Shown: positions 19,331 to 43,587 of the stretch, one piece after another
Position numbering within the stretch: the first letter of the stretch is position 1
Layout of the letters: the number at the start of each line of letters is the position of its first letter
Source of the DNA: a virus
Direction: 5' to 3' (one strand)
DNA length: 64,000 bases
Virus record (IMG/VR): IMGVR_UViG_3300045988_179014
Span: 64,001-128,000 of that record
The notes under the pieces: model-generated
What the model saw: the letters and a program-made list of their open reading frames with translations, nothing else
Told to the model about the DNA's origin: nothing
The model's database searches: none
Translations under genes and position numbers: made by a program

Positions 19331-19331
19331 G

Positions 19332-19371
19332 AAAAAACCTCCGATACAACGCTTAAACATTATACCGGAGG
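19332..19371 (-). terminator. rho-independent terminator of tmRNA (stem cctccg/cggagg, 22-nt loop, U6)
   Basis: On the minus strand: ...cagctccacgaa CCTCCGgtataatgtttaagcgttgtatCGGAGG TTTTTTC ATG. The 3' stem half also serves as the SD for the next gene. Confidence 0.55.
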
Positions 19372-19376
19372 GTTCG

Positions 19377-19738
19377 TGGAGCTGACGGGATTCGAACCCG
19401 TGTCTTGACAGTCATACACTTGAAATCTACAAACATAGTGACGGTTAAAAATTTTATGATAAACCTTCCTATAACCGTCACCAAAGTGTTGGAAGGGTGT
19501 TATCACAGTCCAAATAAGCTGGTTTCTTCACAGACTGATAGAAGAGCAGCGATTCCCTGAACGACACTGGATTCACAGGAACGGGAATCAGTTTCCTGTG
19601 CCAGTGGATTACACAGCTAGGGTGTAATCATCTTGGATAGCATTGGCAGCTATTTTTGCGAGCCTGTTTTACACCTCTTACTCAAAGGTGGTTTGCCTTC
19701 ATAATGTATTTAACTTTCAATCGATACCATTCAGCCCC
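19377..19738 (-). ncRNA. ssrA: tmRNA (ssrA), ~362 nt, CCA not encoded
   Basis: 5' end GGGGCTGAATGGTATCGATTG matches E. coli GGGGCUGAUUCUGGAUUCGAC. 3' end ACGGGTTCGAATCCCGTCAGCTCCA matches GCGGGUUCAACUCCCGCCAGCUCCA. The acceptor pairs. Tag ORF after GCAAAAATAG reads GCC AAT GCT ATC CAA GAT GAT TAC ACC CTA GCT GTG TAA = (A)NAIQDDYTLAV*. Confidence 0.8.
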
Positions 19739-23509: not shown

Positions 23510-23584
23510 ATAACCATTTTACGACATGACATGGTTGAGAAAAAGTAATGGGACCCAAGAGTATTCTCATTAGGTCCCGTATAG

Positions 23585-23658
23585 TTGCGGAGGCAGGATT
23601 TGAACCTGCGACCTCCAGATTATGAGCCTGGCGAGCTACCGAACTGCTCCACTCCGCT
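23585..23658 (-). tRNA. tRNA-Met/Ile2 (anticodon CAT)
   Basis: Acceptor agcggag/ctccgca (A1:A72 mismatch), D gagc/gctc, anticodon loop ctCATaa, T-loop ttcaaat. Confidence 0.7.
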
Positions 23659-23936
23659 ATGTGTTGTTAACAATATCAATATACTCAATATACTGAATAC
23701 AAAAGACATTGTATCAAAAGTACACAAATCCGTGTTCATGTTGAAGTTGTTGGTGAGGGGTGATGGGCTTGCACCATCATCTCTCAACAGTCCACTTTCT
23801 AGTGCGTTGAGCGGATTGTCTTTTCCGGAACTGGGTTAATTACTCCCAATTCGGCCCGGAAACACCTGTCCTAACTCCTGCATGTCTTATGCGCACTCAA
23901 CACGCAGCGATTGGACCAGCTTATCCCAACCCCTCG

Positions 23937-24024
23937 CGGAAGCGACACGATTCGAACGTGTGGCCTCTAAGAAAGAGACTCTGGTTTTCGAAACCAGCGC
24001 AATAAACCTCTCTGCCACGCTTCC
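23937..24024 (-). tRNA. tRNA-Ser (CGA), long variable arm
   Basis: Acceptor ggaagcg/cgcttcc, anticodon stem-loop ctggt-ttCGAaa-accag, long variable arm, T acacg-ttcgaat-cgtgt. Confidence 0.7.
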
Positions 24025-24098
24025 AAAATGTCAGGTTATCCCAAACAAATAAATTGTACCATATTATTCCAGTTCTACAACAGATGTTACTATAAAAC

Positions 24099-24584
24099 TC
24101 AAAAATGTGTTTCAAGTTGTCGCACTTTGATACCCACAGTCTTGAACATACGCTGTGCTGCTATGAACTCCCACCTGTTCCAATCAGGTTCAACAGCATA
24201 CACTACTTCTCGAATACCAACTTGGATGATTTCCTTGGCACATTCATTACACGGATACAAAGTCACATAAATGGTGGCATCTGTGAACTCGCGTAACGAA
24301 CCCCGAAAATTCAAAATAGCATTACGTTCTGCATGCACCACATATGGATACTTGTTCTCCAATGGGTCAGTCTCAGTTTTACACCACGGAAAGTCATGGT
24401 CATCAAACCCGTTAGGAGCGCCATTGTAGCCAATTGTGAGAATACGACGGTCCTGAGTCACCACACAGGCTCCTACTTGGGTTACAGGGTCTTTGGAGCG
24501 CTTCCCAGCTACCTCAGCCATCGCCATGAAAGTTTCATCCCATGTAGGAACTGTTTTACGAGCTTTACTCATCATTCCATCCAA
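24099..24584 (-). CDS. dCMP deaminase (cytidine/deoxycytidylate deaminase family)
   Basis: HAERNAI (zinc His/Glu) and PCNECAKEI (PCxxC) motifs. Confidence 0.8.
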   Translation of the reverse strand: MDGMMSKARKTVPTWDETFMAMAEVAGKRSKDPVTQVGACVVTQDRRILTIGYNGAPNGFDDHDFPWCKTETDPLENKYPYVVHAERNAILNFRGSLREFTDATIYVTLYPCNECAKEIIQVGIREVVYAVEPDWNRWEFIAAQRMFKTVGIKVRQLETHF

Positions 24585-25315
24585 CCGTAATTTTCAGAAT
24601 CAGTGGATTTATGTACTAATGAAAATAAAACACCAGTATATTCCAAAGTATTGTCACGTTTGCTTCCGTCAAAATGGAAGAATTTATGCACCAATGCAGC
24701 TAGAGTGATGTATGCTTCTTCCACAGTTTTACCATATGCGTTCAACTGTGGATTGTAGTAATGATTGGTGTATTCAGGAGCTATGTGTTCGCCAGCTTCC
24801 ACTTCCCACATATGGGGTTGATTGTTATGAGATGGGACAGGGAACAATTCCACCTGACGAGCATAGCCATTTTGATTCCAGCGCCAAGTAGATTGATTCT
24901 TGTCTCTAGTCCAAAAAGCTGGATGTTGGTCAATGAAACCATATGCTTTGAGAAAATCAGTAGGGTCTTTCTCCCACTCAGACGCCAACTCTAAAAACAT
25001 CTGATACTGATAACGTAATATTTGTTCTCTTTGCTGGTCAGTTACGGTAAAGCATAAACTCGTTCCATCAGTTTTCGTGGCTGGAGCATAGATACGTTGT
25101 TGGTCATGTTCAACTTCTGGGAGAGTCTCTGCAAATGCAAAATTCAGGTCTTTGGATACTGCCCAAGCATAGGCTTCAATAAATGTGTCAAAGTGTTTCC
25201 CAGAAATTGTATACTGTCCGTCCACGTATTCTAGATGTTGAATGGGGCGTGGAGTCGGAACCAAAGACCTCATCCACTCAGGAAGTTCAGGCAAAATCTC
25301 TTTGTTATCAGTCAT
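24572..25315 (-). CDS. hypothetical protein
   Basis: 247-aa ORF; 13-nt overlap with the dCMP deaminase gene. Confidence 0.5.
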   Translation of the reverse strand: MTDNKEILPELPEWMRSLVPTPRPIQHLEYVDGQYTISGKHFDTFIEAYAWAVSKDLNFAFAETLPEVEHDQQRIYAPATKTDGTSLCFTVTDQQREQILRYQYQMFLELASEWEKDPTDFLKAYGFIDQHPAFWTRDKNQSTWRWNQNGYARQVELFPVPSHNNQPHMWEVEAGEHIAPEYTNHYYNPQLNAYGKTVEEAYITLAALVHKFFHFDGSKRDNTLEYTGVLFSLVHKSTDSENYGWME

Positions 25316-25472
25316 ATTTCCTACTTAGACATGTTCTGGCACACAATCAGTTTAACCAATTTTTAATGTTGAAATTTGTGGAACAATCAACACCAATCAG
25401 ACACAGTAACAGGATGGAACAGTTGATGGTTCGTTTAACATCAAACCATATGTCTATATGATTTATATGGCT

Positions 25473-25521
25473 AAAAAACGACAAAAACTCCCATTATGTC
25501 TCAATTAATACATAATGGGAG
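25473..25521 (-). terminator. rho-independent terminator at the end of the tRNA array (11-bp stem ctcccattatg/cataatgggag plus U-tract)
   Basis: The minus strand reads the hairpin followed by tttttgtcgtttttt. Confidence 0.6.
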
Positions 25522-25625
25522 TCATAAATATTGCTACAACAATTAAACCTACCCACCATGTTTCATGAGGTAGGTAGTAATTGTTGTTTGTTGTATTTGC
25601 TAAACAACAGAGAACACGTAAGATT

Positions 25626-25700
25626 GGTATTTTAACGTGCTACCATTACACCAAGGTCCCATGTAGTGGAACCTGTAGGAATCGAACCTACACCTTTCCG
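25626..25700 (-). other. permuted or fragmented tRNA-like element: 3' part (anticodon arm + T-arm + acceptor 3' strand) directly followed by a matching 5' part (acceptor 5' strand + D-arm)
   Basis: On the minus strand: ttcct-tttgaac-cggaa aggt gtagg-ttcgatt-cctac aggttcc a, then ctacat, then gggacct tg gtgt aatggtag cac g. The strand gggacct pairs with aggttcc. Confidence 0.35.
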
Positions 25701-25860
25701 GTTCAAAAGGAAGTAACCAATCTCCCACATCTGTTGATAGCATCAGTCCAGGAATCAATCCTTACCATTATAGGAGTTAGACTGAACTATTCAATTGTAT
25801 AAATTATATCATACATATACTTTTAGAGTATGAGTTCCATAGAGTATCTATCTATTGATG

Positions 25861-25934
25861 ATGATTTTAGTAGCTGAGGAGGGATTCGAACCCTCGACCT
25901 TACGATTATGATTCGCATGCTCTAACCAACTGAG
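25861..25934 (-). tRNA. tRNA-Met/Ile2 (CAT)
   Basis: ggctgag ta gctc agttggttagagc, anticodon tgcga-atCATaa-tcgta, T gaggg-ttcgaat-ccctc, acceptor 3' ctcagct a. Confidence 0.7.
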
Positions 25935-25966
25935 CTACTCAGCCAAGCGTGAGTTGAATTCTATAT

Positions 25967-26040
25967 TATGTTATTGCGCCCTTGGCAGGATTTGAACCTG
26001 CGACCTTTTGCGTCGGAAGCAAATGCTCTATCCAACTGAG
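25967..26040 (-). tRNA. tRNA-Arg (CCG)
   Basis: gcccttg ta gctc agttggatagagc, tttgc-ttCCGac-gcaaa, T gcagg-ttcaaat-cctgc, caagggc g. Confidence 0.75.
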
Positions 26041-26144
26041 CTACAAGGGCCAACTATATACTGTATACTAATTGGAGATGTGAAATTTCCATCTGTAACC
26101 TTAACTCTACTTAAGGTTGCTACACGAATTCTATAAGAAGAGGA

Positions 26145-26528
26145 TTAGGGAACTACATCATTTTTCCGAAAAACATTAATCCAATTTTCGCGAGAACCTG
26201 TGATGATGCCCTCGGAAAGCAATCTATCTACTTCTTCACTAATCCTTGCATCTCGTACTTGTGCTTTATGAATTGTCTCATAAGAACGGATATCATCAAT
26301 GGTTGGGGCTACATCTGATGCATAATCCCCACCTCGCATGAATGAATCTGACTGGATGGTTTCTACATTGAAAATTTGCCTGATTTTTTCATCAATCAGG
26401 TAGTGGTCACTCACAAGGGCTAATTTTCCATTTACATATAACGCTGACCAGTCCTCAGACCCTTCATATACAACATAACTAGTCATTTTTCCTCCGCATC
26501 TGTGTAGAGCGCATGGATGTTGTAGCAA
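26145..26528 (-). CDS. hypothetical protein
   Basis: 127-aa ORF. Confidence 0.45.
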   Translation of the reverse strand: MLQHPCALHRCGGKMTSYVVYEGSEDWSALYVNGKLALVSDHYLIDEKIRQIFNVETIQSDSFMRGGDYASDVAPTIDDIRSYETIHKAQVRDARISEEVDRLLSEGIITGSRENWINVFRKNDVVP

Positions 26529-26535
26529 TATAGTA

Positions 26536-26793
26536 TTAGTTAGACTTTATTCTTCCAGAAAATTCGTTCCAAAGAGCTTCGACTTGAGCAAGATTTTTGG
26601 GACGAATATACTGACTTAGTTCGAAGCTGGGAAATGGTGTATTCATGGATAAAAATTCAACCCCAATAGCTTGACCATCAGGGTTAGCATCCAATAAAAC
26701 CTTGTCCGTTACCTGAACGCAATGCTCAGGCAATCCCGGTTTGAGAGTGACGTATAAACCATTATTACGTCTTTCTGCTTTAAAACGAGCCAT
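26536..26793 (-). CDS. hypothetical small protein
   Basis: 85-aa ORF in tandem with 26145..26528. Confidence 0.45.
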   Translation of the reverse strand: MARFKAERRNNGLYVTLKPGLPEHCVQVTDKVLLDANPDGQAIGVEFLSMNTPFPSFELSQYIRPKNLAQVEALWNEFSGRIKSN

Positions 26794-26880
26794 TATACAC
26801 CTCCTGGATTTTTAGTATTCTAGACCCATAATCGACAAAAACCACATAGAGTTCAATCCATGTGGCTGTTTGTACTATAG

Positions 26881-26951
26881 CTGGGGTAGCAGGAATCGAA
26901 CCTACATTTCCGCATCCAAAGTGCGGCGTGATGCCGTTACACCATACCCCA
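26881..26951 (-). tRNA. tRNA-Gln (TTG)
   Basis: Starts TGGGGTA and ends TACCCCAG (U1:A72, as in E. coli tRNA-Gln); anticodon ccgca-ctTTGga-tgcgg. Confidence 0.75.
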
Positions 26952-26958
26952 ATAATAA

Positions 26959-27035
26959 TGGAGCCCCCTGTGAGATTCGAACTCACGACCTTTCGCTTAC
27001 AAGGCGAATGCTCTAACCAGCTGAGCCAAGGAGGC
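26959..27035 (-). tRNA. tRNA-Thr (TGT), CCA encoded
   Basis: gcctcct tg gctc agctggttagagc, ttcgc-ctTGTaa-gcgaa, T gtgag-ttcgaat-ctcac, agggggc t cca. Confidence 0.75.
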
Positions 27036-27039
27036 ATTG

Positions 27040-27113
27040 AAGACAGAGAACAATTCGTTGATAGTAATTAATATTGTTAATTGTGAAGTAACCATCAACT
27101 TCACTTCTGTCTT
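27040..27113. repeat. ~75-nt palindromic structured element, copy A (outer stem aagacaga/tctgtctt, inner hairpin gtgaagt-aaccatca-acttcac)
   Basis: Second copy at 31593..31667 has outer stem aagataga/tctatctt (compensatory C>T and G>A). Confidence 0.6.
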
Positions 27114-27187
27114 GGAGCGGATAACGGGATTCGAACCCGTACTAACAGTTTGGAAGACTGGTGTGCTGCCTTTGACACTACATCCGC
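27113..27187 (-). tRNA. tRNA-Gly (TCC), CCA encoded
   Basis: gcggatg, anticodon cagt-ctTCCaa-actg, T acggg-ttcgaat-cccgt, tatccgc t cca. Compare E. coli Gly(UCC) loop ccTTCCAAg. Confidence 0.7.
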
Positions 27188-27346
27188 AAGCGTACTGGTT
27201 GTTTCCTGGAGCCAGTACATAAAAACCGTATCACTTTGCGACAGTGACAGGAAACACGGTCGAACCCAACACTCAGATGCGGTTGAGTTGATGATTACAT
27301 CTGTTGGTTCTTTTTTAAATCAGGTCGCAACTGACCGCACCCAATG

Positions 27347-27419
27347 TGGACCAGAAGGGAATCGAACCCTCAGCCTCTTGTCTGCCAGACAAATGCTCTA
27401 CCAATTGAGCTACCAGCCC
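27347..27419 (-). tRNA. tRNA-Ala (GGC), G3:U70
   Basis: gggctgg ta gctc aattggtagagc, tttgt-ctGGCag-acaag, T gaggg-ttcgatt-ccctt, ctggtcc a. Confidence 0.7.
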
Positions 27420-27425
27420 TTATCG

Positions 27426-27498
27426 AGCGGACAACGGGACTCGAACCCGTAACCTTTACCTTGGCAAGATAATGCTCTACCAATTGAGCTATGTCCGC
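27426..27498 (-). tRNA. tRNA-Gly (GCC)
   Basis: gcggaca ta gctc aattggtagagc, ttatc-ttGCCaa-ggtaa, T acggg-ttcgagt-cccgt, tgtccgc t. Confidence 0.75.
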
Positions 27499-27505
27499 AT
27501 AACAA

Positions 27506-27586
27506 CATTGATTGCAGAGTTTCTAAGAGCCAATGGGGGCCTTAGCGTTAGCGACGCCCATTCCCGACGCACCCTGCAATCAATGC
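27506..27586 (-). ncRNA. candidate structured RNA: 12-bp perfect closing stem (cattgattgcag/ctgcaatcaatg) around a ~56-nt GC-rich interior
   Basis: Inverted repeat seen directly; the interior contains further complementary segments (aatggg/cccatt). Lies between tRNA-Gly(GCC) and the Y-RNA-like element. Confidence 0.35.
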
Positions 27587-27606
27587 GTTACCCAACCTAC
27601 GTTGGA

Positions 27607-27715
27607 GATGAAAGATTAACACCTTATGCCACTATTGGGAATCGAACCCAAGCCGCTCCTTTTCCGAGGAGTATTCTCCCATTAAAATATGGGACACAAA
27701 GGTTAATCTTTCATG
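27607..27715 (-). ncRNA. candidate Y RNA (YrlA-like tRNA mimic): long terminal stem formed by the 5' and 3' ends enclosing a tRNA-like domain with a canonical T-arm
   Basis: On the minus strand: catgaaagattaacctttgtg ... tcccat-atttta-atggga ... ctcc-tcggaaaa-ggag ... cttggg-ttcgatt-cccaa tagtggca taaggtgttaatctttcatc. The 5' gaaagattaacc pairs with the 3' ggtgttaatctttc. No 7-bp acceptor stem and no anticodon arm, so it is not a tRNA. An Rsr/Ro60 homolog lies 2 kb away in the same array. Confidence 0.45.
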
Positions 27716-27761
27716 ATTGTTTTGGCAGTACCTATTCTGCCATTGAACTAAAACACTAAGT

Positions 27762-27801
27762 GAAGGTAACTGTCCGAAACCTGCCAATAACAGTTACCTT
27801 C
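27762..27801. other. 12-bp perfect hairpin (gaaggtaactgt/acagttaccttc, 16-nt loop) between tRNA-like elements
   Basis: Seen directly; no clear U-tract, so it is possibly a processing or structural element. Confidence 0.4.
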
Positions 27802-27803
27802 CG

Positions 27804-27876
27804 AGCCGCCATCGGGAGTCGAACCCGAGACCTCTTTCCTACCAAGAAAGTGCTCTACCAACTGAGCTATAACGGC
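27804..27876 (-). tRNA. tRNA-Thr (GGT)
   Basis: gccgtta ta gctc agttggtagagc, ctttc-ttGGTag-gaaag, T tcggg-ttcgact-cccga, tggcggc t. Confidence 0.75.
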
Positions 27877-27893
27877 AGATAATTATTATTCCG

Positions 27894-27969
27894 AGCCATC
27901 TATGGGATTTGAACCCATGACTTCCCCATTACGAGTGGGGTGCTCTACCAAAAACTGAGCTAAGATGGC
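27894..27969 (-). tRNA. tRNA-Thr (CGT)
   Basis: gccatct ta gctc agtttttggtagagc, cccca-ctCGTaa-tgggg, T atggg-ttcaaat-cccat, agatggc t. Confidence 0.75.
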
Positions 27970-27978
27970 AACATTTGG

Positions 27979-28052
27979 CGCTCCTAGTAGGACTCGAACC
28001 TACACTCAATGGTTTAGGAAACCATGACTCTATCCTATTGAGCTATAGGAGC
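27979..28052 (-). tRNA. tRNA-Arg (CCT)
   Basis: gctccta ta gctc aataggatagagt, atggt-ttCCTaa-accat, T gtagg-ttcgagt-cctac, taggagc g. Confidence 0.75.
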
Positions 28053-28065
28053 CCATAGATTGTTG

Positions 28066-28139
28066 TCTGGGAGGTAGGATTTGAACCTACGACTTCTCGC
28101 GTCCGAGGCGAGCGACCTACCAAACTGGCCTACACCCAG
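28066..28139 (-). tRNA. tRNA-Pro (CGG), C1:G72
   Basis: ctgggtg ta ggcc agtttggtaggtc, ctcgc-ctCGGac-gcgag, T gtagg-ttcaaat-cctac, ctcccag a. Confidence 0.7.
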
Positions 28140-28166
28140 ATATTTGGTAATTTGCTGTTTACTAAG

Positions 28167-28240
28167 TGGCCCCGGTGGGACTCGAACCCACACTGTACAG
28201 GTTTTGAAGCTGTCCCCTCTACCAATTGGGGTACGGGGCC
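28167..28240 (-). tRNA. type-I (short variable arm) tRNA with leucine anticodon CAA (reads UUG), A73; isotype uncertain
   Basis: ggccccg ta cccc aattggtaga gggg, anticodon arm acagc-ttCAAaa-cctgt (4 bp plus a C:C), variable acagt (5 nt), T gtggg-ttcgagt-cccac, cggggcc a. The body resembles Bacillus tRNA-Trp. The alternative TCA reading does not form a stem. Confidence 0.5.
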
Positions 28241-28276
28241 ATTGACCATAATATAAGTTCGTAGTTTTTATGATAG

Positions 28277-28349
28277 TACCCCGAACGGGATTTGAACCCG
28301 TGTTACCGCCTTGAAAGAGCGGTGTCCTAGGCCACTAGACGACCGGGAT
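28277..28349 (-). tRNA. tRNA-Glu (TTC)
   Basis: atcccgg t cgtc tagtggcctaggac, ccgct-ctTTCaa-ggcgg, taac, acggg-ttcaaat-cccgt, tcggggt a. Close to E. coli tRNA-Glu. Confidence 0.75.
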
Positions 28350-29143
28350 ATGTAGGAGAGTTAGAATTGCTCTCCTAATGACAACCTTTTGCTGGATTAT
28401 GGTTTCCCAGCGTTTCCACGATGTCCCCACCGTAGTTGCCGCGCCTGGTTGCTATGGACCAACCACTCCTTATGTCGTACACTACTCCACAGATTTGGTT
28501 TCGACAAGCGGTTGCAAGCCGCTCATCTGCACTACTTTCTTATGAACACAGTTTGACCTTGCGAGTCGCACCATGGCTGAGTTCCGGAATACGGCTCAGC
28601 ATTAAGACGCTTTCATATACAACAGGAAAAGGCTTTTGCTTTCTGCTAATCTCTCATTCCACGAATGAATATGGGGTATGACTAGAGATGTGCTTTTCCA
28701 TGAAGTTCCGCAACCTTTTGGGCTACAGAATGCTTCACACCTCTACTGCTTTCGTTGTCACACTACTTACAGTCTCGTTCTCATCTTGAACTCGCCAATC
28801 CAAGACTTAAACTCATGGTATCCGCTCTTGCTTGACAGGCTCGAACTAAATACCTCGCATCACAAGTCATTTATCCTTGTTGTTTGTCTTCTCTGTCCAC
28901 TTTGCGTAAGTGGCTGTGCTACACCGATTGGCTCTCGCACAGATGAAGCAACTCGGATAAATGGCATCCTACTCCTTTTGTAGAATGCGCCTTGGTGCAG
29001 TGCATGAAGTGCCTCTTGCGAGGTGGCAGGCTGTCAAACCCACCTTTCGCCATCTTGCGATGGTTTATGCGTCATGCCGCGTCGTCAGGGAAGAAGTTTT
29101 GACACTTCATGATACAGAAATCATTCATCTACATGATTCCCTG
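28350..29143 (-). ncRNA. ~800-nt ORF-free, GC-elevated, hairpin-rich segment inside the tRNA array: candidate large structured noncoding RNA (class unknown; strand assumed from neighbours)
   Basis: No minus-strand ORF of 60 aa or more; the plus-strand ORFs here overlap in three frames with no RBS. Many local inverted repeats (e.g. aggagag-ttagaattg-ctctcct, aagcgg-ttgcaa-gccgct, tggctgagttccgg/ccggaatacggctcagc). Bounded precisely by tRNA-Glu and the tRNA with anticodon TAG. Confidence 0.4.
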
Positions 29144-29218
29144 TTATGTAATGTGCCCTTGAGAGGACTCGAACCTCCAACCTTCTGAGTCTAAGTCAGA
29201 TGCCTCTACCAGATTGGG
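29144..29218 (-). tRNA. type-I tRNA with leucine anticodon TAG (reads CUA/CUG), A73
   Basis: gcccttg ta gccc aatctggtag aggc, clean anticodon arm tctga-ctTAGac-tcaga, variable aggtt (5 nt), T ggagg-ttcgagt-cctct, caagggc a. 75 nt, no long variable arm. Confidence 0.6.
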
Positions 29219-29386
29219 CTACAAGGGCATTAATATTCCTTGGTATTCACTGATTACTCTCGCTATAAAAACAAGAATAATCAGTGAACCAAGTAGCTAG
29301 ACTTATAGGGGCTACCCCGGCTAGCACCATGCGTTAGGGAGACCAACCAAGTTGACCTCCCCCTCAATGAGGACCTGAATCCTCAG

Positions 29387-29473
29387 CGGAGACGGCAGGA
29401 TTCGAACCTGCGGAAGGGATTGACCTTCACCCGCTTTCCAAGCGAGCGCTTTAGGCCTCTCAGCCACGTCTCC
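29387..29473 (-). tRNA. tRNA-Ser (GGA), long variable arm
   Basis: ggagacg tg gctg agaggcctaaagc, ctcgc-ttGGAaa-gcggg, variable tgaaggtcaatcccttc, T cgcagg-ttcgaat-cctgc, cgtctcc g. Confidence 0.7.
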
Positions 29474-29640
29474 ATTTAAGACTCTCTCTGAAGTTATCAT
29501 TTTCATGGTAGTTGTTGCTACTACTTTACCAGCTTAACCCATGGATTCCAATTTGTCAAATCGAGGTATTCCTCCAAACTTGGTCCATTCTTCAGTTGGT
29601 TTTACCAGTTTAACACACCTTTGAAAGCTATGTCAACTAG

Positions 29641-29732
29641 TGGCGGAGGACAAGGGAATCGAACCCTTACCGGAGTTGAATCCGGCCCTGTTTTCAAGAC
29701 AGGTGCAGCAACCCAATATCTGCCTGTCCTCC
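29641..29732 (-). tRNA. tRNA-Ser (TGA), long variable arm, CCA encoded
   Basis: ggaggac, cctgt-ctTGAaa-acagg, variable gccggattcaactccggt, T aaggg-ttcgatt-ccctt, gtcctcc g cca. Confidence 0.7.
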
Positions 29733-29791
29733 ATGGAGTTGTTGAATCAGTATACCATAGATTACACATTGATTCAACAACCACTATTGTT

Positions 29792-31375
29792 TTACTTTTC
29801 CCAAGGCCAACCAGTATCGAATCCTCTTTCAATGAGAGGAATCGTCTGGAACCCCTTATCAGACAATCCACCAAACGTGAATCGTCCGGGTTTATTGACA
29901 GCTTGTGCAGCTTCGTATCCAGCAAGATTCCAGGTAAAGGTTGGAACATTTGTTGGAACAACACCTTCAAATACGTCCACTGTACCACTATTGTAGTAAC
30001 GATTGTATCCAAAATAACCGTTCTGCTCATCGGTCAATAGGATTACTCTATCATGACCATTGTAGGCAGTTTCCAACGCAATACGTGTGTCAGTACCTCC
30101 AAAAGGCGCTGGCATGGCTTCTGCTACTCGAAGTAGGTCGTTTGAACGAATTTCCTGTTTCGTTGCCGAATCGTTGTACGTCCATACTTCTGCATTTTCC
30201 GCTCGCAGTGCTAGAGCAGCTGCAAACATATTAGCTGCATCTGAACGCAGTAATGTGCCTCTTCTTGACATATACGTATACATGGAACCGGAATTGTCAA
30301 CCAGAATAAGTGTACGTCCTGCCAATTGAGGAATATTGGATAGAGCGCCATTCGCCCCTTGTTGAAGCGCACCTGCAAAATCAAGCGGAGCTGACCGGTA
30401 AGCAGCCAAAAATTCTATAGGCATGGTGCGAGAATTTGCTACCAGTTTTTCATCTGCCAAAATGCTGTTGATTTTAGCAATAGTAGCAGGGCCAACACCT
30501 GAATCTGCAATACGACGTAAGTTCATACGCAACGCTTGATACCCCATGAAGGGAACGAGATTATCCCATACTTCAGCAGGAATCTTCCCCAAAGCTCCTG
30601 CCACAACTTCATGAGTCAACCGCGCTTTTCGGATGACGCGTTCAGCTTCATTCCCCGTTAGAAGTTCAACCTGTGCAGTCTTACTCAATGCCAAGAATTC
30701 ACGTCGTGCTTTGATGATGGGAAGGTTGCTGTCATCAAAATCGCGATTGTATGCATCAGCAATAACTGCATTGAATAAAGCTTCTTGGTGGATATCCTTT
30801 GGTGTGGGATGTGTCAGGTTTAACACATCTCGAAGTGACACAGCACCATTGGAAGCACGTCCACGCCACTTCAAAAAGGAAGTCTCGGTAAATAGGGTAT
30901 TCAGTGCATCTCCAACCCCACGTTTGACACATGAGGGGATACGGCGTCCATATCGAGACATCCAATACGCCAATACATCTGACGCTTCATCAATACGACC
31001 AATAGTAGCTCGTATAATGCCACGGTTCTTTCCAGCCAGTCCAGCATCCAACCGTGCTTTTACTGTTTCCACCGCAATAATGGTTGGGACTGAACGCAAT
31101 CCTACAACATTCCGTAGCCAACCGACTAAACCATGAACCCAATCAGCATCCATGGCAACATTGGATACTAATTTACTAATACGGTCTTGTCGTTCTTCTG
31201 CGGTTTCATAAAATGTGTCCTCATTGAGTGAAGTTACTGCGGTCAAGAACAGCTCGGAACGAGGGTCACGCTTATACCCAAATCCCCCTTCAGGATTTTG
31301 AATAACTTGACCAGTTGTTGATAATGGTCCTACAACATTCCGAACCTTCGTATTAGCATTGTTTAAACGAGCCAT
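29792..31375 (-). CDS. rsr: Ro60-related protein Rsr (TROVE domain plus von Willebrand A domain)
   Basis: 527 aa. C-terminal vWA with MIDAS TLILVDNSGSMY; N-terminal TROVE-like region. Size and architecture match bacterial Rsr. RBS AAAGAGAGG before the ATG. Confidence 0.65.
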   Translation of the reverse strand: MARLNNANTKVRNVVGPLSTTGQVIQNPEGGFGYKRDPRSELFLTAVTSLNEDTFYETAEERQDRISKLVSNVAMDADWVHGLVGWLRNVVGLRSVPTIIAVETVKARLDAGLAGKNRGIIRATIGRIDEASDVLAYWMSRYGRRIPSCVKRGVGDALNTLFTETSFLKWRGRASNGAVSLRDVLNLTHPTPKDIHQEALFNAVIADAYNRDFDDSNLPIIKARREFLALSKTAQVELLTGNEAERVIRKARLTHEVVAGALGKIPAEVWDNLVPFMGYQALRMNLRRIADSGVGPATIAKINSILADEKLVANSRTMPIEFLAAYRSAPLDFAGALQQGANGALSNIPQLAGRTLILVDNSGSMYTYMSRRGTLLRSDAANMFAAALALRAENAEVWTYNDSATKQEIRSNDLLRVAEAMPAPFGGTDTRIALETAYNGHDRVILLTDEQNGYFGYNRYYNSGTVDVFEGVVPTNVPTFTWNLAGYEAAQAVNKPGRFTFGGLSDKGFQTIPLIERGFDTGWPWEK

Positions 31376-31440
31376 GATAACCTCTCTTTACGGTTTATAC
31401 AGGGGATATCGCTGGTGTTTTGAATCCACTGAGAACCAGC

Positions 31441-31486
31441 AAAACAAATACTGTTTGCCATAATTCTGGTCAGTATTTGTTTATTA
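31441..31486. terminator. hairpin (caaatactg/cagtatttg) flanked by aaaa and tttatt; bidirectional terminator-like element between tRNA-Asp and rsr
   Basis: Seen directly. Confidence 0.45.
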
Positions 31487-31504
31487 CATCAGGGATTGAT
31501 TTTG

Positions 31505-31578
31505 CGACCCGTACCGGACTCGAACCGGCGACCTCTGCCGTGACAGGGCAGCGCTCTAACCAACTGAGCTAACGGGCC
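31505..31578 (-). tRNA. tRNA-Asp (GTC)
   Basis: ggcccgt ta gctc agttggttagagc, ctgcc-ctGTCac-ggcag, T gccgg-ttcgagt-ccggt, acgggtc g. Confidence 0.75.
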
Positions 31579-31592
31579 ATATTTTGTATTAC

Positions 31593-31667
31593 AAGATAGA
31601 GAATAATTTGTTGATGGTGGGTTAATATTGCGAATTGTGAAGTAACCATCAACTTCACTTCTATCTT
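31593..31667. repeat. ~75-nt palindromic structured element, copy B
   Basis: See copy A at 27040..27113. Both copies sit immediately 5' (in minus-strand sense) of a tRNA gene. Confidence 0.6.
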
Positions 31668-31725
31668 GTGTAGTTCTATAGTCAATTATTCAACACAAAT
31701 CAACATGTGTAGAAATATGTTGTTG

Positions 31726-31811
31726 TGTCCATGATGGGAGTCGAACCCACACGCCCTTACGGACACTGCGCCCTCAACACAGCCTGTCTACCAAATTTCC
31801 AGCACATGGAC
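31726..31811 (-). tRNA. tRNA-Leu (GAG), canonical type II
   Basis: gtccatg tg ctgg aaatttggtagac, ctgtg-ttGAGgg-cgcag, variable arm tgtccgtaagggcgtg (compare E. coli tgtccttacggacgtg), T gtggg-ttcgact-cccat, catggac a. Confidence 0.7.
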
Positions 31812-31936
31812 AAAATAATATATTAATTAATCTTAATAATTCTATGTTATTGTAACAATACCTTATCTGTTTTCAATAAAGCTTGTACATTGAAAATTGC
31901 TTTATTGACCATTGTTCTTTTTTTTACTAGTTTGGG

Positions 31937-32009
31937 TACGGATGACTGGATTCGAACCAGTGACCTTTTCCGCGTCATGGAAATGCTCTACCAACTGAGC
32001 TACACCCGC
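31937..32009 (-). tRNA. tRNA-Val (GAC)
   Basis: gcgggtg ta gctc agttggtagagc, tttcc-atGACgc-ggaaa, T actgg-ttcgaat-ccagt, catccgt a. Confidence 0.75.
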
Positions 32010-32100
32010 AGAATACTAGTTTCTGTCAATTACTATATTTGATTGTAATGTAAAAACAGTTATGACTATATGCAATAAATTATAGGCAATTTGTAATGAG

Positions 32101-32173
32101 TGGCACCAAAGGGAATCGAACCCTTGACCTTTCGCTTTTCAGGCGAACGCTCTGCCAACTGAGCTACAGTGCC
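32101..32173 (-). tRNA. tRNA-Phe (GAA)
   Basis: ggcactg ta gctc agttggcagagc, ttcgc-ctGAAaa-gcgaa, T aaggg-ttcgatt-ccctt, tggtgcc a. Confidence 0.75.
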
Positions 32174-32206
32174 AAAACTTAGTGATTATACTTTCACATT
32201 ATGTTG

Positions 32207-32279
32207 TGCGTTGCCTGGGACTCGAACCCAGAACCCACTGATTAAGAGTCAGTTGCTCTACCAATTGAGCTAGCAACGC
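32207..32279 (-). tRNA. tRNA-Lys (CTT)
   Basis: gcgttgc ta gctc aattggtagagc, actga-ctCTTaa-tcagt, T ctggg-ttcgagt-cccag, gcaacgc a. Confidence 0.75.
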
Positions 32280-32300
32280 GTGTTTTATAATAATTTGAGA

Positions 32301-32609
32301 TTACTCTTTGTCCCATCCTTCATGTTCTGGGTGTTTCTCCCAAAATGACTTCTTGTGAGAATGTGAGTGAAAAGGTTGAAGCAATTTGTTAATCCAGGGA
32401 ACCTGCTCACACAGCTCATGAGCACATTCATGGCACAACACAGCTTCGTAATCCGTTTCCCCTAACACACCAGAATGCCCTAAGTTGTCAACAAACATAC
32501 CATATCCACCGTAAAAGCCTATCCATAAAGCATTGTTGAATTGATAGTTAGTATTTTCATTGGGGAATTGTGGAGCCAATTCTGTTTCACAAGCTGTGCA
32601 TTGGGCCAT
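32301..32609 (-). CDS. small cysteine/histidine-rich (zinc-finger-like) protein
   Basis: MAQCTACETEL ... CHECAHELC. Start moved to the internal ATG at 32609 (GGGGAGAG upstream), because the track start overlaps the tRNA at 32646-32718. Confidence 0.4.
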   Translation of the reverse strand: MAQCTACETELAPQFPNENTNYQFNNALWIGFYGGYGMFVDNLGHSGVLGETDYEAVLCHECAHELCEQVPWINKLLQPFHSHSHKKSFWEKHPEHEGWDKE

Positions 32610-32645
32610 CGTTTTCTCTCCCCGGTCTAATTCGTATTTCTCCAG

Positions 32646-32718
32646 TGCCCTTGGTGGGACTCGAACCCACACTAAACAGATTTTAAGTCTGCTGCCTCTA
32701 CCATTGGGCTACAAGGGC
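32646..32718 (-). tRNA. type-I tRNA with leucine anticodon TAA (reads UUA), A73
   Basis: gcccttg ta gccc aatggtag aggc, gcaga-ctTAAaa-tctgt, variable ttagt (5 nt), T gtggg-ttcgagt-cccac, caagggc a. Same acceptor and D-arm as the TAG tRNA. Confidence 0.6.
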
Positions 32719-32723
32719 ATAAT

Positions 32724-32800
32724 TGGTACGGCAGGGGGGATTTGAACCCACCTATTTCCACTTTATAAGAGTGGCGCTCATACCGATTAGCATCTGCCGT
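32724..32800 (-). tRNA. tRNA-Ile (TAT), CCA encoded
   Basis: acggcag at gcta atcggtatgagc, ccact-ctTATaa-agtgg, T gtggg-ttcaaat-ccccc (one U:C mismatch), ctgccgt a cca. Confidence 0.6.
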
Positions 32801-32889
32801 ATGTAGTTTTCACATGTTGTTAAGTTGTGAATCCATTATAACTGATTCATCCAATATTTGCAACAATACTTCTCTTTGTTTTTTGCTAG

Positions 32890-32965
32890 CACCCTCGGTG
32901 GGACTCGAACCCACATCAATCCAATTATGCGCTGCCCGCTTAGAAGGCGGTGCCAGTACGAGGGC
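32890..32965 (-). other. aberrant tRNA-like gene with Arg anticodon TCT: acceptor, anticodon arm and T-arm present, no D-arm; 21-nt insert between anticodon arm and T-arm
   Basis: gccctcg ta ctggca ccgc-cTTCTAa-gcgg gcagcgcataattggattgat gtggg-ttcgagt-cccac cgagggt g (76 nt). The loop matches E. coli Arg(UCU) ccTTCTAAg. Confidence 0.4.
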
Positions 32966-33138
32966 ATGTTTTCATATGTTGGCGACTTGTCGGGTCTCTC
33001 ACCCGAAGCTCTGGAGTACAAGTCCAGTGTGTTCTTCCCAGAATAGATGACACAAACCACTTTTTCTGGTAGTTCTAGTCCTTGAGGAAGAATTTTGTGC
33101 TTCTTCCTCATTCTGCTAGACCTTACACCATCGCGTCG

Positions 33139-33212
33139 TCGGGAAGACAGGATTTGAACCTGCGACTTCTGGTACCCAAAACCAGCGCTCTACCAAACTG
33201 AGCTACATCCCG
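33139..33212 (-). tRNA. tRNA-Pro (TGG), C1:G72
   Basis: cgggatg ta gctc agtttggtagagc, ctggt-ttTGGgt-accag, T gcagg-ttcaaat-cctgt, cttcccg a. Confidence 0.7.
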
Positions 33213-33255
33213 GTATTTAAGAATATTTTATTGTAAATTATCAGACTAAATTCAG

Positions 33256-33328
33256 CACGACAGGAGGGATTCGAACCCCCATCTAACACTTTTGGAGAGT
33301 GTCGCTCTACCAATTGAGCTACTGTCGT
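33256..33328 (-). tRNA. tRNA-Trp (CCA)
   Basis: acgacag ta gctc aattggtagagc, acact-ctCCAaa-agtgt, T ggggg-ttcgaat-ccctc, ctgtcgt g. Confidence 0.75.
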
Positions 33329-33370
33329 ATGGATAAATGGCATCCTAATGTTAAAGTGCACACGAAGATA

Positions 33371-33649
33371 CTAGGTACTCTTTAACATCCATTTTTCATC
33401 CAGAATAGATGCTGCATTCTGGATATCTGTAATGGATAACACACCTTCAACATATGAGAAACTACTATTGTTATCACATATGCAAAAATCATAAATTGTT
33501 CCATCTTCAGCTAAGCCATAACAAAGATGAAACATGTCATCTATCTCAAAAGTAATGGATGCAATACGTCCATTACGATATGCGTCATGAAATTCAATGG
33601 ATGTTGGAGTTTTTCCTCGGCTTATCAAATCACCAACATATGAAAACAT
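33371..33649 (-). CDS. small hypothetical protein beginning MFSYVGDL
   Basis: Start moved to the ATG at 33649 to avoid overlap with the tRNA at 33672. The first 8 codons are repeated on the plus strand at 32966 (MFSYVGDLSG..., 26 aa). Confidence 0.35.
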   Translation of the reverse strand: MFSYVGDLISRGKTPTSIEFHDAYRNGRIASITFEIDDMFHLCYGLAEDGTIYDFCICDNNSSFSYVEGVLSITDIQNAASILDEKWMLKST

Positions 33650-33671
33650 GACATCACATCCTTCAATCACT

Positions 33672-33746
33672 TGGTGGAAGCTAGGGGATTCGAACCCCTG
33701 ACCCTCTGCTTGCAAAACAGATGCTCTACCACTGAGCTAAGCCCCC
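33672..33746 (-). tRNA. tRNA-Ala (TGC), G3:U70, CCA encoded
   Basis: gggggct ta gctc agtggtagagc, tctgt-ttTGCaa-gcaga, T agggg-ttcgaat-cccct, agcttcc a cca. Confidence 0.75.
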
Positions 33747-33780
33747 AATAATAAATATGATTGAAAATTATATACATGCG

Positions 33781-33853
33781 TTGGGACATTGGGATTTGAA
33801 CCCAAGACCTCATCTGTATCAGAGATGCGCTCTAACCACTGAGCTATGCCCCA
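33781..33853 (-). tRNA. tRNA-Ile (GAT)
   Basis: tggggca ta gctc agtggttagagc, catct-ctGATac-agatg, T ttggg-ttcaaat-cccaa, tgtccca a. Confidence 0.75.
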
Positions 33854-33882
33854 TTAATGTCTCTCATCAAGAGAGACAATTG

Positions 33883-33953
33883 CTGCCCCACCTGGATTCG
33901 AACCAAGATTAACTGAGTCAGAGTCAGTTGTGCTGCCATTACACTATAGGGCA
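33883..33953 (-). tRNA. tRNA-Gln (CTG), U1:A72
   Basis: tgcccta ta gtgt aatggcagcac, actga-ctCTGac-tcagt, T cttgg-ttcgaat-ccagg, tggggca g. Confidence 0.7.
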
Positions 33954-33982
33954 AGGAGAGTATTATTGATTACTTTGTATTA

Positions 33983-34037
33983 GGCCCAGTGGTGCTGTTG
34001 TTGTGGGCTGGTATTTTTTTGAGGTTACCACTGGGCC
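33983..34037. other. long inverted repeat ggcccagtggt/accactgggcc enclosing a T7 tract; terminator-like
   Basis: Seen directly between tRNA-Gln(CTG) and tRNA-Val(TAC). Confidence 0.4.
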
Positions 34038-34099
34038 AACAACATGGTTGGTATAACATAGGTTTTTTCTTATGAAATCACTATACCATAACTACCATG

Positions 34100-34176
34100 T
34101 GGTGGACACAGAGATAATCGAAATCCCGACCTCCTGGGTGTAAACCAGGCGCTCTAACCAACTGAGCTATGCGTCC
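34100..34176 (-). tRNA. tRNA-Val (TAC), CCA encoded
   Basis: ggacgca ta gctc agttggttagagc, cctgg-ttTACac-ccagg, T gggat-ttcgatt-atctc, tgtgtcc a cca. Confidence 0.7.
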
Positions 34177-34200
34177 ATTGTGAAACTAAGCAACATTGTG

Positions 34201-34273
34201 TGCTCTGAACGGGATTTGAACCCGTGTTGCTGCCTTGAGAGAGCGGCGTCCTAGGCCACTAGACGACCAGAGC
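34201..34273 (-). tRNA. tRNA-Glu (CTC)
   Basis: gctctgg t cgtc tagtggcctaggac, ccgct-ctCTCaa-ggcag, T acggg-ttcaaat-cccgt, tcagagc a. Confidence 0.7.
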
Positions 34274-34294
34274 ATAAAATGTTGGTTTTTATTT

Positions 34295-34367
34295 TGGAAC
34301 GGGTAAGGATTCGAACCTTACATATACCGGTAAAAGGCCGGCCGATTTGCCATTAATCTACCATTCC
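34295..34367 (-). tRNA. atypical tRNA-like with Lys anticodon TTT (odd T-arm/acceptor junction, C33); possibly a degenerate duplicate of tRNA-Lys(TTT)
   Basis: ggaatgg ta gatt aatggca aatc g gccgg-ccTTTta-ccggt atat taagg-ttcgaat-cctta c ccgttcc a. An extra nucleotide lies between the T-stem and the acceptor stem. Confidence 0.35.
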
Positions 34368-34547
34368 ATGGGCAATTTCTTACCCATTTTCTCATCCCCA
34401 TCCAAGACTCTAACTTGGATGCCCTTCCGGTGCATTATCTTTATGCTAATGGGGCAACCATAGGTTCATTCCATATTGTAGGACAAACTATTCGAATTCA
34501 TCTATCCTGACAAAAATGAATTGTTCCCGTAGGTTGGATTATATCCG

Positions 34548-34620
34548 CTCCTCCACCTGGACTCGAACCAGGAACCGTTCGGTTAACAGCCGAATGCTCT
34601 GCCAATTGAGCTACAGAGGA
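34548..34620 (-). tRNA. tRNA-Asn (GTT), copy 1
   Basis: TCCTCTGTAG 5' end as in E. coli tRNA-Asn; ttcgg-ctGTTaa-ccgaa, T cctgg-ttcgagt-ccagg, tggagga g. Confidence 0.75.
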
Positions 34621-34661
34621 ATATAGTATTACATTACAATAATACTTCAACATTTAGTTGG

Positions 34662-34736
34662 TACGCCCTGTGGGACTCGAACCCACGACCTACGGATTAA
34701 AAGTCCGCAGCTCTAAACCAACTGAGCTAAGGGCGC
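34662..34736 (-). tRNA. tRNA-Lys (TTT)
   Basis: gcgccct ta gctc agttggtttagagc, gcgga-ctTTTaa-tccgt, T gtggg-ttcgagt-cccac, agggcgt a. Confidence 0.75.
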
Positions 34737-34808
34737 ATGATAACTTCCCAATTTTTCCTTTGGATACTCGAAAACGCTCCATAATGGAAAAATTATCTCT
34801 GGGATGCG

Positions 34809-34891
34809 TGGATAGGGAGGGATTCGAACCCCCAGCGTTTCTTATGTCACGGTTTTACAGACCGCTTACTTCACCATTTGTATACCTATCC
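34809..34891 (-). tRNA. tRNA-Tyr (GTA), long variable arm
   Basis: ggatagg ta taca aatggtgaagta, gcggt-ctGTAaa-accgt, variable gacataagaaacgc, T tgggg-ttcgaat-ccctc, cctatcc a. Confidence 0.7.
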
Positions 34892-34926
34892 AGGTAATGT
34901 TTGTTTATATTCAATTGTTTTCTCAG

Positions 34927-35013
34927 CGGAGACGACAGGATTCGAACCTGCGGAGGGTGTAACCCCTCGACAGTTTAGCAAACTGTTGCTTTAGGCCTCT
35001 CAGCCACATCTCC
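34927..35013 (-). tRNA. tRNA-Ser (GCT), long variable arm
   Basis: ggagatg tg gctg agaggcctaaagc, acagt-ttGCTaa-actgt, variable cgaggggttacaccctc, T gcagg-ttcgaat-cctgt, cgtctcc g. Confidence 0.7.
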
Positions 35014-35046
35014 AAGTATAACATATGCATGCTATTGATGCAAAAG

Positions 35047-35117
35047 AGGTGCCTATGGGATTCGAACCCATGTACACGGTTTTGCAGACCGCTGCCTCGC
35101 CACTCAGCCAAGGCACC
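35047..35117 (-). tRNA. tRNA-Cys (GCA), U73
   Basis: ggtgcct, gcggt-ctGCAaa-accgt, T atggg-ttcgaat-cccat, aggcacc t. Confidence 0.7.
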
Positions 35118-35118
35118 G

Positions 35119-35194
35119 CACTCCGGGTGAGAGTCGAACTCACATGTGTCCATTAACCTTTCTACTGGTTCGTAGCCAGAGGGTATACCGGAGT
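35119..35194 (-). other. aberrant tRNA-like gene with Arg anticodon ACG: acceptor, anticodon arm and T-arm present, no D-arm; 20-nt insert between anticodon arm and T-arm
   Basis: actccgg ta taccc tctgg-ctACGaa-ccagt agaaaggttaatggacacat gtgag-ttcgact-ctcac ccggagt g (76 nt). Anticodon arm matches E. coli Arg(ACG) cggctACGaaccg. Same rearranged layout as 32890..32965. Confidence 0.4.
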
Positions 35195-35221
35195 AATACA
35201 ATCCAAATATTAGGATGATTC

Positions 35222-35260
35222 ATAGATTCTACATTTGTTGGTAACAGTAGAATCTATTTT
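35222..35260 (+). terminator. rho-independent terminator-like hairpin (11-bp stem atagattctac/gtagaatctat plus TTTT) oriented for the plus strand
   Basis: Seen directly; there is no plus-strand gene upstream, so it may terminate antisense transcription. Confidence 0.4.
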
Positions 35261-35262
35261 GG

Positions 35263-35336
35263 GGTGACTGACCGGATTCGAACCGGCGAAATCCTGAGTC
35301 ACAGTCAGGCGTGTTAACCTCTCCACCACAGTCACC
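35263..35336 (-). tRNA. tRNA-His (GTG) with G-1:C73
   Basis: g gtgactg tg gtgg agaggttaacacgc, cctga-ctGTGac-tcagg, T gccgg-ttcgaat-ccggt, cagtcac c. Confidence 0.75.
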
Positions 35337-35342
35337 ATTCTG

Positions 35343-35415
<73 letters not shown>

Positions 35416-43424: not shown

Positions 43425-43431
43425 GTACCAC

Positions 43432-43587
43432 TCACGCAATCACAGGAGTAACATTTATTGGACTAGGCGCAGGTAATGGTTCAGGCGTTATCATATTCGG
43501 TTTCGACGTATTCATCCACGTGTAAATACCAAACAAGACCAGAACAATCAGAACAGCAATCAAAACCAATAGTCCCCGTTTGTTCAT
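43432..43587 (-). CDS. small membrane protein (51 aa, one TM)
   Basis: GGAGGCATC upstream of the ATG; MNKRGLLVLIAVLIVLVLFGIY...; its ATG overlaps the stop of the upstream gene (ATGA). Confidence 0.4.
   Translation of the reverse strand: MNKRGLLVLIAVLIVLVLFGIYTWMNTSKPNMITPEPLPAPSPINVTPVIA

Follow-up and report, generated by a model that had tools for sequence, protein, structure and literature searches.

An interval of about 800 nt without an evident gene lies in the middle of the tRNA array of this phage, raising the question of what it encodes. An earlier note, made from the letters of the sequence, had taken it for a candidate large structured noncoding RNA of the GOLLD or ROOL kind. GOLLD belongs to the small number of natural RNAs known to build protein-free cages larger than the ribosome, and an expression level that rises during lytic growth is a trait of the family. 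In the window, i.e. the whole stretch of 64,000 nt that was analysed, ARAGORN called 40 genes for tRNAs plus one for a tmRNA, all of which are on the minus strand. The placement of the segment within a tRNA array was confirmed, as was tRNA-Glu(ttc) as its lower boundary; the tRNA with the anticodon TAG proved to be a genuine tRNA-Leu, but its coordinates had been misplaced by about 10 nt (29153–29228 instead of 29144–29218). The gap between the two genes therefore comprises 28350–29152, corresponding to 803 nt.

A covariance-model scan with Rfam 15 over the whole window, a check which the earlier note had proposed, identified the element. GOLLD (RF02032) matched positions 28357–28745 of the minus strand with 222.8 bits, as compared to a gathering score of 150, over the full length of the model (1–416 of 416) and with an E value of 9e-62, which is not attributable to chance. 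This was the sole match in the whole window to a family other than tRNA and tmRNA. ROOL, RNase P RNA, group I and group II introns, HEARO and OLE were not found at gathering score anywhere in the window, in line with the absence of RNase P, group I and group II signatures noticed before. A permissive scan (E ≤ 1) of positions 28200–29300 likewise returned no family besides GOLLD within the gap, the remaining matches being located on or beside the flanking tRNAs (28271–28350 and 29153–29297). Size, tRNA adjacency and dense structure would also suit ROOL, but in the gap only GOLLD and tRNA families reach the gathering score, and it is exceedingly improbable that the segment represents ROOL or any of the other large structured RNAs listed above. 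We estimate the probability that the segment encodes a GOLLD RNA on the minus strand at roughly 0.95; the best explanation is an RNA of about 735–800 nt situated among the arrayed tRNA genes of a phage of roughly 189 kb. The element adds a divergent new member to a family that was already known; given the Rfam match, the alternative idea of a new class is unsupported.

GOLLD RNAs consist of a variable 5' domain and a conserved 3' domain, which form a single RNA of 700–830 nt (PMC12286853, PMC12990946). The Rfam model represents the conserved 3' domain only. Read along the RNA strand, the locus is composed of the following features:

29153–29228, minus strand: tRNA-Leu(tag) (ARAGORN; Rfam tRNA 65.3 bits; sequence read)
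29085–29152, minus strand: leader of 68 nt, AT-rich (34% GC) (alignment A1; fold z −3.2)
28746–29084, minus strand: GOLLD 5' domain core of the actinophage type, 339 nt (nhmmer and profile matches; alignment A2)
28683–28745, minus strand: hairpin that opens the GOLLD 3' domain; its CAAAA loop is conserved (cmscan alignment, model positions 1–62)
28626–28682, minus strand: variable linker J13/15, 57 nt, with the conserved AAAGCAAAAG at its end (cmscan alignment; MAFFT comparison)
28473–28625, minus strand: central multi-helix region, closed by a 9–10 bp helix of CUGUUGUAUA with UGUACGACA (cmscan alignment)
28508–28522, minus strand: single P21 hairpin, GCGG-CUUGCAA-CCGC (cmscan and MAFFT alignments)
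28357–28472, minus strand: 3' terminal part of the 3' domain (cmscan alignment, model positions 299–416)
28276–28349, minus strand: tRNA-Glu(ttc) (ARAGORN; Rfam tRNA 55.6 bits; sequence read)

tRNA-Leu(tag), in which CCA is not encoded, is directly 5' of GOLLD on the RNA strand, and only 5–7 nt separate the 3' hairpin of GOLLD from tRNA-Glu(ttc). The motifs of the GOLLD 3' domain are all present in the cmscan alignment, namely the CAAAA-loop hairpin (which we infer to be P13/P14), AAAGCAAAAG, the closing helix with its arms at 28616–28625 and 28473–28481, GAGUA, GUGGA...GGGAAANNAUAAUCC, and the terminal hairpin; the GUGGA...GGGAAACCAUAAUCC element is visible as well. The 3' terminal part contains the GNRA-type loop GGGA, the GGGAAACCAUAAUCC loop (28394–28408), and the terminal hairpin (28355–28375). 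The exact pattern GTGGANANNNNNGGAANNNATAATCC is common to the window and 119 viral loci.

The abundance of hairpins noticed in the segment turned out to be a property of the RNA strand. When compared to dinucleotide shuffles, the minus-strand fold of the gap (MFE −268.6 kcal/mol) had a z-score of −8.9, with none of 20 shuffles being as good, as opposed to z = −2.2 for the plus strand, indicating that the structure signal is both strong and strand-specific. The description of the segment as GC-rich was correct in that its GC content exceeds that of the window (46.6% vs 42.2%), but the excess is modest; the non-tRNA parts of the array have 39.4% GC and the tRNA genes 54.5%.

A small protein encoded on the plus strand, antisense to the tRNAs, e.g. 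by the 101-aa ORF at 28678–28983, might be considered instead. Overlapping plus-strand ORFs of 101, 81, 75, 55 and 55 aa do exist, translations of ORFs from the gap gave tblastn matches in homologous loci with E values down to 5e-12, and in some records of cluster M phages a hypothetical protein is annotated over GOLLD. However, the tblastn matches of the nine translations came from overlapping frames of both strands in the homologous loci, indicating conservation of the nucleotide sequence rather than of a protein. Three-base periodicity of substitution was not observed for the plus-strand ORFs when compared to the homologues, the mismatch rates at the three codon positions of the 101-aa frame being flat (0.455, 0.474, and 0.449). 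Moreover, the longest antisense ORFs differ in position from homologue to homologue, and the annotated array neighbours that were checked are all located on the opposite strand. Coding potential was rejected on the basis of the tblastn pattern and the missing codon periodicity, and a plus-strand protein is highly improbable. On the RNA strand the longest ORF of the gap comprises 44 aa, consistent with the earlier view that there is no credible ORF, and none of the frames is conserved in the homologues. For annotation, the assignment to GOLLD removes an apparent dark region and cautions against naming antisense ORFs as genes.

As the Rfam model spans the 3' half alone, the match by itself would also be compatible with only positions 28357–28745 being GOLLD, and the 5' 400 nt being an unrelated spacer or an independent noncoding RNA. 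Besides the 119 viral loci gathered by the conserved 3' motif, a search of viral and genome collections with a 5' motif supplied more loci. Homologues of the 5' core are present in L033, L030, L036, L086, L096, L121–L130, L161, and L212. L030, L036, L086 and L096 are four cluster-M-type mycobacteriophage contigs, the six contigs of about 80 kb designated L121–L130 are probably mycobacterial prophages, and L161 and L212, whose 5' regions are homologous to that of the window, belong to Gordonia sputi and G. jacobaea, respectively. The two Gordonia loci were the only real ones among the 90 returned by the pattern scan of genome contigs; the others were discarded as chance matches.

The comparative alignment called for in the earlier note supported the helices of the 5' domain. 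For the 40 pairs predicted from the same 15-sequence alignment that was used for counting, 94.9% of the cells were paired, as compared to 33–45% in slid controls with the partners moved by 1–3 columns. Changes on both sides of the pair, i.e. compensatory ones, occurred in 23 of the 40 (5–11 in the slid controls), and the covariation score was 0.50 (0.05–0.15 in the controls). The best-supported element of the 5' core is a multi-helix junction at 28998–29082. A covariance model of this junction (R1) was used to search 99 loci with the conserved GOLLD 3' motif, comprising 0.93 Mb. It matched members of the subgroup only and none of the 94 other GOLLD-pattern loci; the 5' sequence profile, applied to the other viral GOLLD-pattern loci, likewise matched subgroup members only. 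The 5' domain type thus appears to be specific to the actinophage subgroup, in agreement with the known variability of the GOLLD 5' domain.

This restricted distribution of R1 could also be taken to speak for a 5' half that is independent of GOLLD, as could the fact that the first 68 nt are conserved no further than in the closest relative, L001 (IMG/VR viral contig IMGVR_UViG_3300045988_187329, 188,933 bp). In every complete relative of the subgroup, however, the 5' core abuts the 3' domain with constant spacing, and neither a tRNA nor a promoter or terminator is found between the two. Six relatives show a constant layout consisting of a tRNA, a 5' region of about 400–490 nt, the 3' domain, and a tRNA 9–81 nt downstream. 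Both domains have been described as part of one RNA, for which full-length structures are solved (PMC12286853, PMC12990946). It is thus very unlikely that GOLLD is confined to the 3' half; we favour a single GOLLD RNA in which a variable structured 5' domain, made up of the 339-nt core and the 68-nt leader and thereby within the roughly 300–420 nt expected of a GOLLD 5' domain, is joined to the 3' domain.

L001 contains the same element, with a GOLLD score of 214 bits. It is 97% identical to that of the window, with 21 differences in 804 aligned positions; differences in three helices, checked by eye, were mostly pairing-neutral (U-G to U-A, A-U to G-U, G-C to A-U), with one mismatch. According to alignment A1, L001 is also the only relative in which the leader is conserved. 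The MFE fold of the leader is one stem enclosing three hairpins. At the position of the leader, L030 (6979–7058), L036, L086 and L096 possess a circularly permuted tRNA, arranged as 3' half, 7-nt loop, and 5' half; when the halves were re-joined, ARAGORN called a tRNA. In the MFE fold of the permuted leaders, a stem carries the T arm, the closed acceptor and the D arm. The window leader shares this stem-plus-three-hairpin topology, without a tRNA sequence signature. Within the 5' junction (29064–29080 and about 29002–29007; alignment A3, columns 3–14 and 80–85), a 3-bp helix GNG/CNC, whose middle pair is GC, CG or AU, covaries and encloses the invariant loop GCAUGR. The loop is fully complementary to an invariant YCAUGC located 70 nt downstream. 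GCAUGR and YCAUGC could form a pseudoknot, represent alternative pairings, or mediate an intermolecular contact via the palindrome CAUG.

The score of the window copy, 222.8 bits, is 50–100 bits below those of nine majority-class GOLLDs (273–326 bits). P21b is absent from it due to a 17-nt deletion relative to the Rfam model. A single P21 hairpin is also present in all 13 other aligned members of the subgroup, and P21a and P21b occur together in each of the nine majority-class GOLLDs. The loop of the single P21 contains the self-complementary UGCA (28513–28516). This palindrome varies with the lineage, being UGCA in the window, GGCC in mycobacterial and Gordonia copies, and CGCG in L113, as would fit the L21–L21 self-kissing loop of the solved structures (PMC12286853), in which such loops join the cage halves (PMC12286853, PMC12990946). 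The idea that a stronger L21 palindrome offsets the loss of P21b was unsupported, 4-nt palindromes (UCGA, CGCG) also occurring in two-hairpin GOLLDs. The 57-nt linker lacks an embedded tRNA. In most relatives of the subgroup, a tRNA or a sequence resembling one is inserted at this site, tRNA-like inserts being seen in L033 and L086, and a tRNA in the linker has been reported for mycobacterial GOLLD (PMC6582537, PMC12990946). Judged from the sequence, the window copy is a divergent member of an actinophage-type subgroup of GOLLD.

The 40-tRNA array (23584–35415, minus strand), in which all 20 amino acids are represented, is broken up by short ORFs of the minus strand, a dCMP deaminase gene (24099–24584), the gene of a Ro60-like protein, and GOLLD. 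Three class II tRNAs called by ARAGORN (23936–24024, 29641–29732, and 31725–31811) did not reach the Rfam gathering score for tRNA when the whole window was scanned. A 47-nt spacer repeat, which contains the hairpin GTGAAGT...ACTTCAC, occurs at 27068–27114 and 31622–31668 with 94% identity; both copies are situated between pairs of tRNA genes, and the repeat may be a promoter or a processing signal. Positions 32875–32926 resemble the T arm and acceptor of a tRNA (GGTGGGACTCGAACCCAC), with 75% identity to the tRNA-Leu(taa) region; ARAGORN called no tRNA at this site, which may be a tRNA remnant within the gap 32801–33137. The phage-encoded tmRNA (19376–19738, minus strand; Rfam 111 bits) specifies the tag peptide ANAIQDDYTLAV. 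In several relatives, comprising cluster-M-type and majority-class loci, a tmRNA is likewise located within a few kb of GOLLD.

The common orientation with the tRNAs, the tight spacing to them, and the lack of an internal promoter or terminator suggest that GOLLD is probably transcribed together with its neighbours, as one segment of a polycistronic tRNA transcript. The consensus scan yielded no promoter-like or terminator-like site within the segment; a promoter-like site at 29636–29607, which is a sequence match alone and not functional evidence, precedes the run of tRNA-Ser, tRNA-Leu and GOLLD. Cleavage by RNase P at the 5' end of tRNA-Glu, 5–7 nt downstream, would generate the 3' end of GOLLD, and 3'-end processing of the upstream tRNA-Leu would set its 5' end.

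As in the homologous GOLLDs of solved structure, the 5' and 3' domains would fold independently of each other, and the RNA would self-assemble into a closed, dihedral, RNA-only homo-oligomeric cage, the solved GOLLDs being 12- or 14-mers. In the family, this assembly depends on kissing loops and A-minor contacts. Contact between the two half-shells would be made by self-pairing of UGCA in the loop of the single P21, and the short linker would face the cage interior. Publications on GOLLD describe the cages, their self-kissing L21 loops, the inward orientation of the linker, and a location near tRNA islands (PMC12286853, PMC12990946); a kissing loop of L20 with J13/15 has been published as well. 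The window copy retains the CAAAA loop and the loop of GNRA type (cmscan alignment). By analogy, formation of such a cage seems likely. Since the 5' junction was undetected in 94 other loci, it cannot be assumed that the cage stoichiometry, or even cage formation, matches the solved examples. As to function, our most likely guess is that, at a late stage of lytic growth, the cage acts on tRNA or on the machinery of translation, but any such defined part in the handling of tRNA or in translation is tentative and rather doubtful. GOLLD of mycobacterial tRNA clusters is expressed (PMC6582537).

The actinophage-type GOLLDs might even be a structurally distinct sub-class with a different cage geometry and a partner in the tRNA-processing or RNA-quality-control machinery, e.g. 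the Ro60-like protein. The basis for this may lie in a 5' cap domain without detectable similarity to the other viral GOLLD-pattern loci searched, the single P21, and a cloverleaf-shaped leader, which is a permuted tRNA in the mycobacteriophage relatives and would be a degenerate, three-hairpin version of it in the window. We regard a separate sub-class as unlikely.

The Ro60-like gene (29792–31375, minus strand), which codes for a TROVE/Ro60-like RNA-binding protein of 527 aa (Pfam TROVE, 27.8 bits; phrog_850, E 2.9e-40), belongs to the tRNA array, in which it lies 640 nt upstream of GOLLD. Its product has its best phage match in gp111 of Arthrobacter phage Atuin (39% identity), a 194-kb phage in which the Ro gene is likewise found within a tRNA array. 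The 19.6 kb of Atuin examined do not contain an 800-nt gap, the largest tRNA-to-tRNA gap being 437 nt. A phmmer search of six-frame ORFs from 120 GOLLD-pattern loci detected a Ro homologue only in L001. A general link between GOLLD and Ro60 was rejected on the basis of these two results. Neither a Y RNA nor YrlA was matched beside the Ro gene by Rfam at E ≤ 1 in positions 29200–31950. The Ro stop codon is immediately followed by GTTGTTGAATCA...TGATTCAACAAC (about 29738–29781, minus strand), an inverted repeat of 12 bp without mismatch, which ends shortly before tRNA-Ser(tga) and shares positions with the promoter-like sequence TTGAAT-17-TATACT. The repeat might serve as a promoter, as a hairpin for processing, or as a stem resembling that of a Y RNA.

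The window encodes phage-type proteins, namely PolIII alpha, the large subunit of RNR, dCMP deaminase and HNH homing endonucleases, as well as helicases of the RecG-like, PIF1/Dda-like and SNF2 types. The SNF2-type helicase (990 aa; 40467–43439, minus strand) has a large insertion between the helicase motifs with weak matches to intein-splicing and terminase-intein-like sequences, which may be an intein. Two paralogous proteins of about 600 aa (17606–19360 and 53891–55792, both minus strand) contain repeated DUF4379 treble-clef zinc fingers and belong to the HNH/homing-endonuclease PHROGs 559 and 3339; one of their genes adjoins the tmRNA. HNH endonucleases have been described beside GOLLD in mycobacterial tRNA clusters (PMC6582537). 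A Megablast search of INPHARED with 24 kb of the window did not identify a near-identical phage or a close relative. The best protein matches are to actinobacteriophages, with PolIII being 38% identical to that of Streptomyces phages. Together with the GOLLD subtype, these matches suggest an actinobacterial host, for which the low GC content would be unusual.

Among known systems, the actinophage-type GOLLDs of cluster M mycobacteriophages, apparent mycobacterial prophages and Gordonia resemble the window copy most closely. They have the same type of 5' domain (profile E values of 1e-17 to 1e-94), and their 3' domains are the nearest ones by sequence (E 1e-25 to 1e-31). Like the window copy, they possess a single P21 with a 4-nt palindromic loop and are located in a tRNA array immediately before a tRNA; a tmRNA is often close by. 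However, the identity is only about 55–65%, and their GC content is 53–65%, as compared to 47%. Distant blastn searches with the element gave only matches of 74–95 nt, to cluster M mycobacteriophages. The window copy also differs in its short linker without an insert, whereas most actinophage-type GOLLDs have a tRNA-like insert; in its AT-rich three-hairpin leader, which in the cluster-M-type is a permuted tRNA-like cloverleaf; and in the loop palindrome, UGCA instead of the GGCC of mycobacterial and Gordonia GOLLDs. The subtype has already been seen in mycobacteriophages and mycobacterial tRNA clusters, and the conceptual gain from the window copy is small. It extends the actinophage-type subgroup to a low-GC (42%) phage of roughly 189 kb with a full tRNA set, a tmRNA, and a Ro60-like protein.

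ROOL is likewise a large, ornate RNA associated with phages and prophages, located near tRNA genes and forming RNA-only cages, but its sequence and secondary structure are unrelated to GOLLD, and it had no Rfam match in the window. The env-38 GOLLD (833 nt) was solved by cryo-EM as a 14-mer with D7 symmetry (PDB 9MEE; PMC12286853). Set beside it by description, the window copy agrees in its two-domain layout, in the self-complementarity of its L21 loop and in having a tRNA as neighbour, and shares the 3' elements CAAAA loop, AAAGCAAAAG, GAGUA, GGGAAA..AUAAUCC, and terminal hairpin. By the same comparison, env-38 carries both P21 hairpins, P21a and P21b, along with the P1–P12 5' domain of the consensus, whereas the window copy, devoid of P21b, does not show the twin hairpins of the env-38-type consensus. 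The GOLLD of Streptococcus agalactiae (700 nt) is a dodecamer (PDB 9L0R; PMC12990946). It differs from the window copy, by description, in its Firmicutes host and in a shorter 5' domain without P9 and P11a–c, but it also lacks P21b, and a single L21–L21 kissing loop connects the cage planes (PMC12990946). Loss of P21b is therefore compatible with cage assembly, and the hairpin is not obligatory for the family. With respect to stoichiometry, the RNA without P21b (S. agalactiae) is the dodecamer and the one with both hairpins (env-38) is the 14-mer (PMC12990946). As a naturally minimal GOLLD, with a short linker free of tRNA and a single P21, the window copy could be convenient for structural work on the question of how the 5' domain type and the P21 content set the stoichiometry of the cage.
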